DNA from: Escherichia coli
GTDB taxonomy: Bacteria > Pseudomonadota > Gammaproteobacteria > Enterobacterales > Enterobacteriaceae
NCBI RefSeq assembly: GCF_029227855.1
Contig: NZ_CP074357.1
DNA length: 64,000 bases
Direction: 5' to 3' (one strand)
How positions within the stretch are numbered: position 1 is the stretch's first letter; every line of letters starts with the position of its first letter. Below are positions 30,001 through 36,000 of this stretch, piece after piece. The position numbers were made by a program.

Positions 30001-33000
30001 GTTAACGATCAGCATGCAGCTCCTGAGCTGGTGGACTTGGAGGGTATCTCCGTAATGAGTAATGCCTTACTGAGAAAGGCCAAGCAGGAAGGGGTGCCGG
30101 TAGAATTACTTTCATTTCCAGCCGAGCAGGATATGTTGGTTAAGGTAGCAGCCGGGAGAACACCTGAAGCAGAAATTGTCAGGCTGAGAAACAACCTATG
30201 CCATGGCAACATTCTGGAGTTTATCATGTCTGTTGATATCGGTACTTCAGGACCCATACGTATTTTTACGCCTGAATGCTGTCGTGAACTGGCGCATGAA
30301 CTTTCGTCCATTTCCAGGAATTGGGTGGTAGGTTTGCACAAGTACTGGGTCGACAACAATCTGATTTCCCCCTGAAGCTCCTTGAACCTTGCTTTCAGAA
30401 GCCAGGTGTATGAAACCCTATTGGATAATATTTAAAGCCAAAATATGGGGATCTCGTATTCGGTGACAGGCATGGTATAAATGATGTGTCTGAGCAACCA
30501 TCATTGATAATCATGGAGTGAGTCATGAAATTAAAATACCTTCTGTTATGTGCAACTCTGTCTGTCGCCTTTACCTCCTCTGCGGTCCTTGCATCTGAAA
30601 ACGGGAAAAAACCGATCCCGGGCAAATCAGATGTGATGGTTGCCGATATTTGTTTAAAACCTGAAATCCAAAGTGAAACCGATTATAAAAAAACGAAAGA
30701 ACTGGTAAGGACTGAGTTTGAAGAAAACTTGCCTGTTGGATCTAAAATCAAAGAAAAAGACTTGAATGCCGTAATTGAAGCATTTGCTACTCGTAAAAGG
30801 GACACGCCGGAGCGAGCGGACCATTGCCAAGAAAACGTACGTGAAAGATACTGGGAAATGAACCCGGTGAAAGATAAATAAAATACATTCACGTTGTATA
30901 ATATAGAGGCTTCAATTCTGAAGCCTTTTTTATTTTCAGATTATTTTGATTCTGACAATAATGAAATAAAATTGAGCATTATCGCTTAACACTGGATAAG
31001 AAAAAGAGCCATCTTTTATATTGGACAGGTTTGAATTTAAGGAATTTTGGATTCACAGTTTTCTGCGTTATTAGACGGCAAGGGCAATCTGGTATGATTC
31101 ACCTAACACACGAATCTGGAAGGAAAAGTATATGGGTGACCTGGTCAGCAAAAATAGCATTGACCGTTTAGAGCGATTTCATTCTTTGCTGGCGGGTCAG
31201 TACTGGACGTCCACTGACAGCATCCCTGAAGAGGGTATTGTGGCAGGGGATACACTGCTCATTACGTCTTTGCGTGGCACTGTTGCAAATAGTCGGTGGT
31301 GATAAACTTATCATCCCCTTTTGCTGATGGAGCTGCACATGAACCCATTCAAAGGCCGGCATTTTCAGCGTGACATCATTCTGTGGGCCGTACGCTGGTA
31401 CTGCAAATACGGCATCAGTTACCGTGAGCTGCAGGAGATGCTGGCTGAACGCGGAGTGAATGTCGATCACTCCACGATTTACCGCTGGGTTCAGCGTTAT
31501 GCGCCTGAAATGGAAAAACGGCTGCGCTGGTACTGGCGTAACCCTTCCGATCTTTGCCCGTGGCACATGGATGAAACCTACGTGAAGGTCAATGGCCGCT
31601 GGGCGTATCTGTACCGGGCCGTCGACAGCCGGGGCCGCACTGTCGATTTTTATCTCTCCTCCCGTCGTAACAGCAAAGCTGCATACCGGTTTCTGGGTAA
31701 AATCCTCAACAACGTGAAGAAGTGGCAGATCCCACGATTCATCAACACGGATAAAGCGCCCGCCTATGGTCGCGCGCTTGCTCTGCTCAAACGCGAAGGC
31801 CGGTGCCCGTCTGACGTTGAACACCGACAGATTAAGTACCGGAACAACGTGATTGAATGCGATCATGGCAAACTGAAACGGATAATCAACGCCACGCTGG
31901 GATTTAAATCCATGAAGACGGCTTACGCCACCATCAAAGGTATTGAGGTGATGCGTGCACTACGCAAAGGCCAGGCCTCAGCATTTTATTATGGTGATCC
32001 CCTGGGCGAAATGCGCCTGGTAAGCAGAGTTTTTGAAATGTAAGGCCTTTGAATAAGACAAAAGGCTGCCTCATCGCTAACTTTGCAACAGTGCCCACTG
32101 ATCCGCATGCCCGTTCCATACAGAAGCTGGGCGAACAAACGATGCTCGCCTTCCAGAAAACCGAGGATGCGAACCACTTCATCCGGGGTCAGCACCACCG
32201 GCAAGCGCCGCGACGGCCGAGGTCTTCCGATCTCCTGAAGCCAGGGCAGATCCGTGCACAGCACCTTGCCGTAGAAGAACAGCAAGGCCGCCAATGCCTG
32301 ACGATGCGTGGAGACCGAAACCTTGCGCTCGTTCGCCAGCCAGGACAGAAATGCCTCGACTTCGCTGCTGCCCAAGGTTGCCGGGTGACGCACACCGTGG
32401 AAACGGATGAAGGCACGAACCCAGTGGACATAAGCCTGTTCGGTTCGTAAACTGTAATGCAAGTAGCGTATGCGCTCACGCAACTGGTCCAGAACCTTGA
32501 CCGAACGCAGCGGTGGTAACGGCGCAGTGGCGGTTTTCATGGCTTGTTATGACTGTTTTTTTGTACAGTCTATGCCTCGGGCATCCAAGCAGCAAGCGCG
32601 TTACGCCGTGGGTCGATGTTTGATGTTATGGAGCAGCAACGATGTTACGCAGCAGGGCAGTCGCCCTAAAACAAAGTTAACCCAGGATGAGAACCTTGAA
32701 AGTATCATTGATGGCTGCGAAAGCGAAAAACGGCGTGATTGGTTGCGGTCCAGACATACCCTGGTCCGCGAAAGGGGAGCAGCTACTTTTTAAAGCATTG
32801 ACCTACAATCAGTGGCTTCTGGTGGGTCGCAAGACGTTTGAATCTATGGGCGCACTCCCCAATAGGAAATACGCGGTCGTTACCCGCTCAGGTTGGACAT
32901 CAAATGATGACAATGTAGTTGTATTTCAGTCAATCGAAGAGGCCATGGACAGGCTAGCTGAATTCACCGGTCACGTTATAGTGTCTGGTGGCGGAGAAAT

Positions 33001-36000
33001 TTACCGAGAAACATTACCCATGGCCTCTACGCTCCACTTATCGACGATCGACATCGAGCCAGAGGGGGATGTTTTCTTCCCGAGTATTCCAAATACCTTC
33101 GAAGTTGTTTTTGAGCAACACTTTACTTCAAACATTAACTATTGCTATCAAATTTGGAAAAAGGGTTAACAAAGCTATGCAATCGACGGCAAAAAGCTTC
33201 GTTCGCTTCGCGCACTACGCCTTTTCCGCGATTGATAGCGACGTTATGCAGCCAAATCCCAACAATTAAGGGTCTTAAAATGGTAAAAGATTGGATTCCC
33301 ATCTCTCATGATAATTACAAGCAGGTGCAAGGACCGTTCTATCATGGAACCAAAGCCAATTTGGCGATTGGTGACTTGCTAACCACAGGGTTCATCTCTC
33401 ATTTCGAGGACGGTCGTATTCTTAAGCACATCTACTTTTCAGCCTTGATGGAGCCAGCAGTTTGGGGAGCTGAACTTGCTATGTCACTGTCTGGCCTCGA
33501 GGGTCGCGGCTACATATACATAGTTGAGCCAACAGGACCGTTCGAAGACGATCCGAATCTTACGAACAAAAAATTTCCCGGTAATCCAACACAGTCCTAT
33601 AGAACCTGCGAACCCTTGAGAATTGTTGGCGTTGTTGAAGACTGGGAGGGGCATCCTGTTGAATTAATAAGGGGAATGTTGGATTCGTTAGAGGACTTAA
33701 AGCGCCGTGGTTTACACGTCATTGAAGACTAGTCCTTTGCATAACAAAGCCATCAAACCGGACGCCAGAGATTCCGCGCCTGTTGCGCATGGCTTCGCCA
33801 TTTTATGCGCAATAGGCGCGCCACCCTGTCGCCGTTTATGGCGGCGTTGGGCGCACAATAAGGCTCCTCGCAGAGTTGCTTGAAAGTTGTTACGATTCAA
33901 ATTCAATCATGAGATAGTCAGCAGATGAGCACTTCCAAGAACGCAGACAAGTAAGCCGCAGCAACCTTCATTTTTCGGTTGTTGCGGCGTTCTCATGAAT
34001 CCTTTTGCTCTACGGGAGCGCCGCCAAATCCTTTGTTCAAGGAGATGGTTTCGTGCGCTCAAAAAACTTTAGTTGGCGGTACTCCCTTGCCGCCACGGTG
34101 TTGTTGTTATCACCGTTCGATTTATTGGCATCACTCGGCATGGACATGTACTTGCCAGCAGTGCCGTTTATGCCAAACGCGCTTGGTACGACAGCGAGCA
34201 CAATTCAGCTTACGCTGACAACGTACTTGGTCATGATTGGTGCCGGTCAGCTCTTGTTTGGACCGCTATCGGACCGACTGGGGCGCCGCCCCGTTCTACT
34301 GGGAGGTGGCCTCGCCTACGTTGTGGCGTCAATGGGCCTCGCTCTGGCACTGTTGCAAATAGTCGGTGGTGATAAACTTATCATCCCCTTTTGCTGATGG
34401 AGCTGCACATGAACCCATTCAAAGGCCGGCATTTTCAGCGTGACATCATTCTGTGGGCCGTACGCTGGTACTGCAAATACGGCATCAGTTACCGTGAGCT
34501 GCAGGAGATGCTGGCTGAACGCGGAGTGAATGTCGATCACTCCACGATTTACCGCTGGGTTCAGCGTTATGCGCCTGAAATGGAAAAACGGCTGCGCTGG
34601 TACTGGCGTAACCCTTCCGATCTTTGCCCGTGGCACATGGATGAAACCTACGTGAAGGTCAATGGCCGCTGGGCGTATCTGTACCGGGCCGTCGACAGCC
34701 GGGGCCGCACTGTCGATTTTTATCTCTCCTCCCGTCGTAACAGCAAAGCTGCATACCGGTTTCTGGGTAAAATCCTCAACAACGTGAAGAAGTGGCAGAT
34801 CCCGCGATTCATCAACACGGATAAAGCGCCCGCCTATGGTCGCGCGCTTGCTCTGCTCAAACGCGAAGGCCGGTGCCCGTCTGACGTTGAACACCGACAG
34901 ATTAAGTACCGGAACAACGTGATTGAATGCGATCATGGCAAACTGAAACGGATAATCGGCGCCACGCTGGGATTTAAATCCATGAAGACGGCTTACGCCA
35001 CCATCAAAGGTATTGAGGTGATGCGTGCACTACGCAAAGGCCAGGCCTCAGCATTTTATTATGGTGATCCCCTGGGCGAAATGCGCCTGGTAAGCAGAGT
35101 TTTTGAAATGTAAGGCCTTTGAATAAGACAAAAGGCTGCCTCATCGCTAACTTTGCAACAGTGCCGGATTGAATATAACCGACGTGACTGTTACATTTAG
35201 GTGGCTAAACCCGTCAAGCCCTCAGGAGTGAATCATGACCGTAGTCACGACCGCCGATACCTCCCAACTGTACGCACTTGCAGCCCGACATGGGCTCAAG
35301 CTCCATGGCCCGCTGACTGTCAATGAGCTTGGGCTCGACTATAGGATCGTGATCGCCACCGTCGACGATGGACGTCGGTGGGTGCTGCGCATCCCGCGCC
35401 GAGCCGAGGTAAGCGCGAAGGTCGAACCAGAGGCGCGGGTGCTGGCAATGCTCAAGAATCGCCTGCCGTTCGCGGTGCCGGACTGGCGCGTGGCCAACGC
35501 CGAGCTCGTTGCCTATCCCATGCTCGAAGACTCGACTGCGATGGTCATCCAGCCTGGTTCGTCCACGCCCGACTGGGTCGTGCCGCAGGACTCGGAGGTC
35601 TTCGCGGAGAGCTTCGCGACCGCGCTCGCCGCCCTGCATGCCGTCCCCATTTCCGCCGCCGTGGATGCGGGGATGCTCATCCGTACACCGACGCAGGCCC
35701 GTCAGAAGGTGGCCGACGACGTTGACCGCGTCCGACGCGAGTTCGTGGTGAACGACAAGCGCCTCCACCGGTGGCAGCGCTGGCTCGACGACGATTCGTC
35801 GTGGCCAGATTTCTCCGTGGTGGTGCATGGCGATCTCTACGTGGGCCATGTGCTCATCGACAACACGGAGCGCGTCAGCGGGATGATCGACTGGAGCGAG
35901 GCCCGCGTTGATGACCCTGCCATCGACATGGCCGCGCACCTTATGGTCTTTGGTGAAGAGGGGCTCGCGAAGCTCCTCCTCACGTATGAAGCGGCCGGTG

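Follow-up and report, generated by a model that had tools for sequence, protein, structure and literature searches.

Two IS26-bounded remnants of class 1 integrons, with different intI1 breakpoints, on an Escherichia coli IncHI2 plasmid

Pseudo-compound transposons and translocatable units (TUs) of IS26, and the conservative incorporation of the latter, were described by Harmer, Moran and Hall in 2014 (PMC4196232), and two reported arrangements built from class 1 integron components come close to the DNA considered here. The first is a 2,780-bp module comprising a truncated intI1, aadA22 and lnu(F), with an IS26/5'-CS boundary at one end and a 3'-CS/IS26 boundary at the other, found in pYUHAP5-2, p160070-CTXM and pNDM33-1 (PMC7843705). 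The second is the gene set dfrA14-arr-2-cmlA-blaOXA-10-aadA1, reported in related IncHI2 ST3 plasmids (PMC12240926).

The window, that is, the whole 64,000-nucleotide stretch of E. coli DNA analysed here, is base-identical to positions 96001-160000 of NZ_MZ152088.1, an E. coli IncHI2A/IncN plasmid with 12 IS26 copies, three of which are the G184N variant. This plasmid contains only two pieces of intI1 and no intact copy, and neither qacEdelta1 nor sul1 occurs anywhere in it. Both intI1 pieces lie within the window (remnants 1 and 2 below), as do five IS26 copies, every one on the + strand. Cassettes were identified with NCBIfam models and from 100% AMRFinder calls in the record identical to the window, and the hexamers of Pc and P2 follow Table 1 of PMC2791841.

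31276-32095, + strand: first IS26 copy, left boundary of remnant 1, its right inverted repeat (IRR) against intI1 nt 445 (NF033587, E 3.6e-83)
32096-32540, - strand: intI1 remnant, nt 1-445, residues 1-148 (148.3 codons), ATG at 32540
32425-32453, + strand: Pc variant PcH1, TGGACA-17-TAAACT, without a TGN extension
32544-32569, + strand: P2 position, TTGTTA-14-TACAGT, GGG insertion absent
32570-32676, + strand: end of the 5'-CS including attI1; cassette junction G/TT at 32676/32677
32677-33243, + strand: dfrA14 cassette with attC; gene 32696-33169 (NF000330, 302 bits; AMRFinder 100% dfrA14)
33244-33846, + strand: arr-2 cassette with attC; gene 33280-33732 (NF033144; 100% Arr-2)
33847-34345, + strand: 5' part of the cmlA5 cassette, upstream leader region and codons 1-97 (34053-34345, first 293 nt)
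34346-35165, + strand: second IS26 copy, standard sequence, right boundary of remnant 1
38719-39500, + strand: third IS26 copy, cut at nt 782
56675-57494, + strand: fourth IS26 copy
61250-62069, + strand: fifth IS26 copy, standard sequence, left boundary of remnant 2, its IRR abutting intI1 nt 798
62070-62867, - strand: intI1 remnant, nt 1-798, residues 1-266 (266 codons), ATG at 62867
62752-62780, + strand: Pc variant PcW, TGGACA-17-TAAGCT
62871-62899, + strand: P2, active-type promoter, TTGTTA-17-TACAGT, created by the GGG insertion
62900-63006, + strand: end of the 5'-CS including attI1; cassette junction G/TT at 63006/63007
63007-63862, + strand: aadA22 cassette; gene 63016-63807; mosaic of aadA2 5' end, aadA1 body and aadA2 attC
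63863-64000, + strand: start of the lnu(F) cassette; gene from 63939, running past the window end

The four full-length IS26 copies are 820-bp elements with 14-bp terminal inverted repeats and a 234-aa Tnp26; they have GGCACTGTTGCAAA ends, share 99.6-100% mutual identity and match NF033587 with E about 1e-83. The first copy is a G184N variant (IS26-v1 type), differing from the others at nt 459, 613 and 614. Since the elements match well-known ones at 99.6-100%, chance similarity is of no concern.

A preliminary description of this DNA had recognised two integron fragments truncated by IS26, with about 148 and 266 codons of intI1 respectively, and considered both integrases dead; each of these points holds. 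Only nt 1-445 and nt 1-798 of an intI1 of about 1014 nt survive. The first product keeps the N-terminal SAM-like domain and R146, ending two residues past that arginine, and both products lack H277, R280, H303 and Y312. Matches to the catalytic domain (PF00589) cover positions 2-39 and 2-118 of 172, against 2-169 for a near-full IntI1; the IntI1 reference, from pYps.F1, was used only to about nt 985, after which foreign sequence is fused. With intI1 incomplete in both, these are integron remnants and not functional integrons.

The opposite side of each remnant is preserved, as had also been claimed. The 5'-CS runs through AAAACAAAG/TTA at 32668-32679 and 62998-63009, identical to the 5'-CS of other plasmids, and the segment in remnant 1 is identical to that of Klebsiella pneumoniae pCRKP-1215_1. 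Inspection of the promoters, which the preliminary description had suggested, distinguishes PcH1 in remnant 1 from PcW with an active-type P2 in remnant 2, all with exact hexamers and 17-bp spacing; P2 of remnant 1 has no GGG insertion and so is not an active promoter (PMC2791841). A generic sigma-70 scanner recovered PcH1 but missed PcW and P2 (score 8 of 12), and the identification of these two consequently rests on exact matches to published hexamers. Judging from the promoter sequences, PcH1 would drive dfrA14 and arr-2, and PcW with P2 would drive aadA22 and lnu(F).

The DNA between the first two IS26 copies, 32096-34345, is remnant 1 in its entirety, and the dfrA-arr-cmlA fragment array first noted there resolves into dfrA14, arr-2 and the N-terminal 97 residues of CmlA. 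The 3' boundary of the dfrA14 cassette is placed at 33243 because arr-2 is the first cassette in p1KSK20, to whose complete arr-2-cmlA5 array the corresponding stretch is 100% identical. The cmlA5 piece, covering positions 1-97 of 419 in the CmlA model and 100% identical to cmlA5 in L004, is cut by IS26 and non-functional, and has no place in a count of resistance genes; no other cmlA piece exists anywhere in NZ_MZ152088.1. Compared with the IncHI2 ST3 gene set, remnant 1 is cut by IS26 at cmlA5 codon 97, lacks blaOXA-10, aadA1 and the 3'-CS, and has its intI1 reduced to 445 nt; we infer that the full array was the direct parent of the one in remnant 1.

The 'hybrid' aadA of remnant 2 proves by base comparison to be aadA22, an aadA2/aadA1 mosaic (AMRFinder 100% in the window-identical record), to which 304 plasmids carry a match at >=99%. 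Positions 63007-63165 are identical to aadA2, 63154-63806 have three differences from aadA1 and 67 from aadA2, and the attC (63807-63864) again matches aadA2 at every base. The lnu(F) cassette that follows runs off the end of the window and was out of reach of the preliminary description. In NZ_MZ152088.1 it ends at window-equivalent position 64799, followed by the first 50 bp of the 3'-CS and then IS26 at 64850-65669; this start of an ordinary 3'-CS also disposes of a sul3-type integron, which we had entertained with regard to the neighbouring sul3/mef(B) segment. The interval 62070-64849 is exactly 2,780 bp, and in array, length and boundary type we detect no difference from the module of PMC7843705; only the neighbouring IS26-bounded segments differ.

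Cassette boundaries fall where they do in other arrays containing these cassettes, only the cmlA5 cassette being incomplete, and the bottom strands of the attC sites of dfrA14, arr-2 and aadA22 fold with z-scores of -2.5, -4.1 and -2.4 relative to shuffled sequences. These sites seem intact, and an IntI1 provided in trans could act on them; on this plasmid, which encodes no IntI1, the arrays are frozen. Genes for resistance to trimethoprim, rifampicin, streptomycin/spectinomycin and lincosamides therefore travel on this IncHI2 plasmid as IS26-bounded blocks and not as mobile cassettes.

All IS26 copies flanking the two remnants are directly oriented, as in a pseudo-compound transposon. The outer flanks are CTTTGCGT and GGATTGAA for module 1 (remnant 1 with its bounding IS26 copies) and AGCCGACG and CATTTATG for module 2; neither pair forms the 8-bp target duplication of a classical compound transposon, which fits conservative incorporation of TUs. 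Like the units of PMC4196232, the modules are unique segments between directly oriented IS26 copies shared by neighbours, the copy at 34346-35165 being common to remnant 1 and an mph(A)-mrx(A)-mphR(A) module, and their boundaries have no target duplications.

Junctions were counted among the 72,556 plasmids of PLSDB with 40-bp queries able to match only across the junction; 120-bp queries were dropped, because they scored an IS26 end and an intI1 piece lying close together as a single hit and so over-counted. The IS26/intI1 junction at nt 445 occurs in 102 plasmids and that at nt 798 in 566, from many genera, while the cmlA/IS26 and 3'-CS/IS26 junctions occur in 73 and 191. Both remnants are thus ordinary modules, of which sequenced plasmids already provide dozens to hundreds of examples. 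Describing them amounts to routine annotation of a region of multidrug resistance, and the gain is modest and practical: the exact junctions at nt 445 and nt 798 are convenient markers with which to follow the modules.

For the junction at nt 798, the source is a documented IS26 insertion, and other plasmids still have its target duplication intact. In pIMP-SZ1510 (NZ_KT982617.1) a single IS26 lies within intI1 with nt 791-798 duplicated, and in pB3 (AJ639924) IS26-tetA(C)-tetR-IS26 occupies the same site; both have the junction of remnant 2 but, unlike the window with its 5' half only, they retain intI1 on either side of the insertion together with the 8-bp duplication. The reciprocal junction, with the duplication TTCTACGG, is present in 182 PLSDB plasmids. 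From these comparisons the nt-798 junction is evidently one flank of an inserted IS26 that duplicated 8 bp of its target, and not a simple truncation. The reciprocal of the nt-445 junction, which would carry a duplication of CACTGATC (intI1 nt 438-445), is absent from all 72,556 PLSDB plasmids, so that this junction fits an adjacent deletion by IS26; collections of genome and metagenome contigs lack the reciprocal too, but as they also lack the nt-445 junction itself, used as a positive control, they add nothing to the PLSDB result.

Neither junction is tied to one array. That at nt 798 also precedes cmlA1-aadA2 in pB3, aadB-blaVIM-2-aadA6 in Pseudomonas aeruginosa and arr-2-cmlA5 in Acinetobacter baumannii. 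That at nt 445 precedes dfrA12-orfF-aadA2 in IncFII/IncR plasmids of K. pneumoniae and in Providencia pTC2, with a 5'-CS identical to that of remnant 1 or differing by 1 nt; unlike remnant 1, these plasmids mostly have PcS rather than PcH1, and a 3'-CS or group II intron downstream. For either junction, the Pc variant as well as the array can differ from those seen here.

We propose, with considerable confidence, that the window contains two separate IS26-bounded modules, formed beforehand and later recruited, whose intI1 genes IS26 had destroyed long before the plasmid existed. Each would be a pseudo-compound transposon that retains, of a class 1 integron, the half with promoter, attI1 and cassettes, and would be movable in principle as a TU; that the modules may form TUs is suggested by their sequence and by published work on these families. 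For module 2, IS26 would have transposed into intI1 at nt 791-798, generating the 8-bp duplication; the other half of the gene would have been lost later, and another IS26 would have cut the 3'-CS 50 bp in. For module 1, a separate event, most likely an adjacent deletion, would have placed IS26 against nt 445, and a second IS26 cut would have removed everything past cmlA5 codon 97 from a longer array containing dfrA14-arr-2-cmlA5. The modules may then have joined the directly oriented IS26 array of the IncHI2 plasmid, either through conservative incorporation targeted to a resident IS26 or through recombination between copies of this element.

The preliminary description had attributed the two breakpoints to independent IS26 events; the breakpoints do differ, but independent events are not strictly separable from sequential ones, in which a deletion ran inward to nt 445. 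An IS26 already resident in intI1, for instance at nt 798, could have attacked nt 445 by intramolecular replicative transposition and deleted nt 446-798. At both junctions IS26 faces intI1 in the same way, its IRR abutting the gene; a deletion derivative predicts exactly the contrast between no reciprocal halves for nt 445 and 182 for nt 798; and further IS26/intI1 spacings, noted incidentally, point to a series of remnants of this kind. Nothing specific ties the two lineages together, however, their left flanks being different and Pc variants being mixed in both, and the starting IS26 could equally have been anywhere upstream of intI1. We regard the sequential origin as possible but doubtful.

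The identical junctions of many plasmids need not be due to shared ancestry: in principle, IS26 may have struck insertion hot spots in intI1 repeatedly, and independent origins would give the same pattern of one junction with several Pc variants and unrelated arrays. This we consider very improbable. IS26 is not known to favour particular targets strongly, in all cases examined it has one orientation and sits at the same base, and the module-specific second boundaries are likewise common to many plasmids. Moreover, ample room for homologous exchange is left by the conserved attI1 and by the 329-682 bp of 5'-CS, likewise conserved, that separate the junction from Pc. One junction is met with four or more unrelated arrays and in three or four configurations of the promoters, which would imply frequent replacement of the Pc-attI1-cassette portion. 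A broader proposal, which we hold to be evenly balanced, is that IS26/intI1 junctions are long-lived lineage markers behind which a dead integron keeps evolving by such replacement, through homologous recombination in the short retained 5'-CS or through IntI1 in trans, and that the nt-445 lineage may derive by deletion from an earlier intI1::IS26 such as that at nt 798.

Slightly less probable again are two recent, independent IS26 hits on two complete integrons resident on this IncHI2 plasmid. IS26 activity here is plausible enough, given 12 copies, three of the more active G184N form (PMC9019673). Yet base-identical junctions recur on unrelated backbones and in other genera, including IncP-1 pB3 and plasmids of Pseudomonas and Acinetobacter, and a search of the whole of NZ_MZ152088.1 found neither the missing 3' parts of intI1 nor the remainder of cmlA5, nor does the rest of the 3'-CS occur in it. 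The same search led us to reject an IS26-mediated inversion, which would have left these halves elsewhere in the plasmid. By sequence comparison, neither cut appears to have happened in this plasmid; both junctions would be inherited and are widely shared.

Lastly, the reading that one integron was copied and the copies diverged is excluded: over the 445 nt of intI1 common to both remnants there is a single mismatch, but this carries no signal of duplication since class 1 integrons as a whole show hardly any variation in the 5'-CS, the mismatched base lies in the Pc -10 hexamer (TAAACT against TAAGCT), the GGG insertion in P2 is confined to remnant 2, the arrays have nothing in common, and the alignment proposed in the preliminary description as a check for a shared breakpoint places the two breakpoints 353 nt apart.

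The two class 1 integron remnants have intI1 breakpoints 353 nt apart (nt 445 against nt 798). The preliminary description had already indicated different breakpoints and took a shared one as the sign of a duplication. The remnants also carry different Pc -10 hexamers, different P2 regions and no cassette in common, and a duplication of one integron is therefore excluded. That description had proposed two independent IS26 events; the events are distinct, while independence in lineage is not provable. Its observation is confirmed and its interpretation essentially right, with refinements concerning the age of the junctions, their origin and cassette expression. 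The IS26 copies in the window (n=5, all on the + strand) and the components of both remnants are as follows.

31276-32095, + strand: IS26, left border of remnant 1
32096-32540, reverse complement: intI1 nt 1-445, 148.3 codons, start codon at 32540
32425-32453: Pc of remnant 1, variant PcH1, TGGACA-17-TAAACT (hexamers per Table 1 of Jové et al. 2010, PMC2791841)
32677-33243: dfrA14 cassette
33244-33846: arr-2 cassette
33847-34345: cmlA5 cassette, 499 bp only, cut by the next IS26; cmlA codons 1-97 at 34053-34345
34346-35165, + strand: IS26, right border of remnant 1
38719-39500, + strand: IS26, cut at nt 782
56675-57494, + strand: IS26
61250-62069, + strand: IS26, left border of remnant 2
62070-62867, - strand: intI1 nt 1-798, 266 codons, ATG at 62867
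62752-62780: Pc of remnant 2, variant PcW, TGGACA-17-TAAGCT
62871-62899: P2 of remnant 2, active-type, TTGTTA-17-TACAGT, made by a GGG insertion
63007-63862: aadA22, first cassette of remnant 2
from 63863, past the window end: lnu(F) cassette

Remnant 1, first described as 32096-34345, is exactly the DNA separating the first two IS26 copies. Its attI1 meets the first cassette at G|TT (32676|32677), its P2 is inactive because the spacer is 14-bp, and its cassettes were identified by NCBIfam models, by AMRFinder 100% calls on an identical record and, for 33243-34345, by the match to an A. baumannii array given below. NZ_MZ152088.1, an E. coli plasmid of 267 kb (conjugative, IncHI2A/IncN), matches the whole window base for base at its positions 96001-160000, so that the sequence past the window end can be read there; after lnu(F) come 50 bp of 3'-CS and then another IS26, which gives module 2 a unique segment of 2,780 bp. 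The aadA gene had been called a hybrid, correctly: the 5' part of the aadA22 cassette (63007-63165) is identical to aadA2, positions 63154-63806 have 3 differences from aadA1 against 67 from aadA2, and the attC is identical to that of aadA2.

The catalytic residues of IntI1 are R146, H277, R280 and Y312; counting residues along a near-full IntI1 placed these, and H303, where expected. The fragments end at S148 and E266 respectively, and match only positions 2-39 and 2-118 of the 172 in the Pfam catalytic-domain profile (2-169 for reference IntI1), which bears out the view that both integrases are dead. No further intI1 sequence, qacEdelta1, sul1 or other piece of cmlA5 occurs in the whole plasmid; with both integrase fragments incomplete and no other intI1 present, the arrays stay fixed on this replicon as long as no IntI1 is provided from another source. 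Folding of the attC bottom strands is still better than that of shuffled controls (z -2.5, -4.1 and -2.4). The retained promoters would be expected to drive cassette expression.

Both modules are already known, from the literature and from hundreds of database records. When PLSDB was searched with 40-bp queries able to match only across a junction, the nt-445 junction (the IS26|intI1 border of remnant 1) was present in 102 plasmids (Salmonella 40, Klebsiella 31, Escherichia 26) and its counterpart in remnant 2, at nt 798, in 566 from many genera, including Pseudomonas, Acinetobacter, Shewanella and Vibrio. The second borders, cmlA|IS26 of module 1 and 3'-CS|IS26 of module 2, were found in 73 and 191 plasmids. 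The nt-798 junction precedes cmlA1-aadA2 with PcH1 in IncP-1 pB3, aadB-blaVIM-2-aadA6 with PcH1 in P. aeruginosa pPUV-12, and arr-2-cmlA5 with PcW-TGN in A. baumannii; in plasmids of K. pneumoniae and Providencia the nt-445 junction precedes dfrA12-orfF-aadA2, the promoter being PcS or PcH1. Since identical junctions stand before varied arrays and promoters elsewhere, neither cut was made in this plasmid, and on these comparisons both junctions are best regarded as inherited: old, widely shared markers.

Positions 33243-34345 of remnant 1, an nt-445 lineage, are 100% identical to the complete arr-2-cmlA5 array of A. baumannii p1KSK20, which lies behind the nt-798 junction, so cassettes must have passed from one lineage to the other. 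Other recurrent IS26|intI1 spacings in other plasmids, at about nt 603, 869, 898 and 1006 (distances between IS26 end and intI1 probe), suggest that IS26-associated intI1 remnants circulate in a series of distinct forms.

An insertion at nt 798 predicts a reciprocal junction, the 3' part of intI1 ending in TTCTACGG and then the IS26 left end, and this was found in 182 PLSDB plasmids. In pIMP-SZ1510 a single IS26 lies within intI1, with nt 1-798 on one side and nt 791 onward on the other, which amounts to an 8-bp target duplication; pB3 has IS26-tetA(C)-tetR-IS26 at this site with the same duplication. The nt-798 junction is demonstrably an IS26 insertion with target duplication, and the nt 1-798 piece in the window is the 5' half of the interrupted intI1. 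For nt 445 the reciprocal junction (GTTGCAAACCCTCACTGATC|GGCACTGTTGCAAA, with duplication of CACTGATC) occurs in 0 of 72,556 plasmids, as would be expected after an adjacent deletion by IS26. The nt-445 junction is thus probably an IS26 deletion, and the IS26 responsible could have been one already within intI1. Neither the genome nor the metagenome collections contained the nt-445 junction itself.

Neither module is flanked by an 8-bp duplication, and adjacent modules have IS26 copies in common. The order is IS26, remnant 1, IS26, mph(A)-mrx(A)-mphR(A)-delta-IS6100, truncated IS26, the qnrS1 to blaCTX-M-55 to blaLAP-2 region, IS26, an aac(3)-IId segment, IS26, remnant 2, IS26. Such an arrangement is to be expected where translocatable units were incorporated conservatively with an existing IS26 as target (Harmer, Moran and Hall, PMC4196232), or where IS26 copies recombined with one another, and the modules may have been joined in the plasmid by one or the other.

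A macrolide module of the classical mph(A)-mrx(A)-mphR(A) type occupies 35166-38718; at its end stand 321 bp of IS6100 (inverted repeat at 38398-38411), which IS26 has cut in turn. The large IS26-bounded segment at 39501-56674 carries qnrS1, ISEcp1-blaCTX-M-55, a Tn2 remnant with blaTEM-1, a penicillin-binding-protein-like gene and blaLAP-2; the IS26 at 38719-39500, whose final 38 bp are missing together with the right inverted repeat they contain, abuts the segment with a pRiA4b ORF-3-like gene, a resolvase, ISKpn19 and qnrS1. The last gene of the aac(3)-IId module (57495-61249) encodes a DUF3883 protein and is truncated at 61249, since its ORF (59972-61276) reads into IS26.

The first IS26 breaks a small backbone ORF (31134-31275, MGDLVSKNSIDRLERF...); the matching CTTTGCGT flank is at none of the plasmid's IS26 copies, and the other part of the gene was not located. 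This copy and that at 56675-57494 differ from the window's other three at nt 459, 613 and 614 and encode Tnp26 G184N (RIINATL against RIIGATL), a form of the IS26-v1 type with reportedly higher activity (PMC9019673); the plasmid has one more copy of this variant elsewhere. Beyond the window, two IS26 copies in opposite orientation (NZ_MZ152088.1 184908-185727, +, and 193999-194818, -) have a common 8-bp flank, GATTCAAG, at the right end of one and the left end of the other, apparently the trace of an inversion by IS26.
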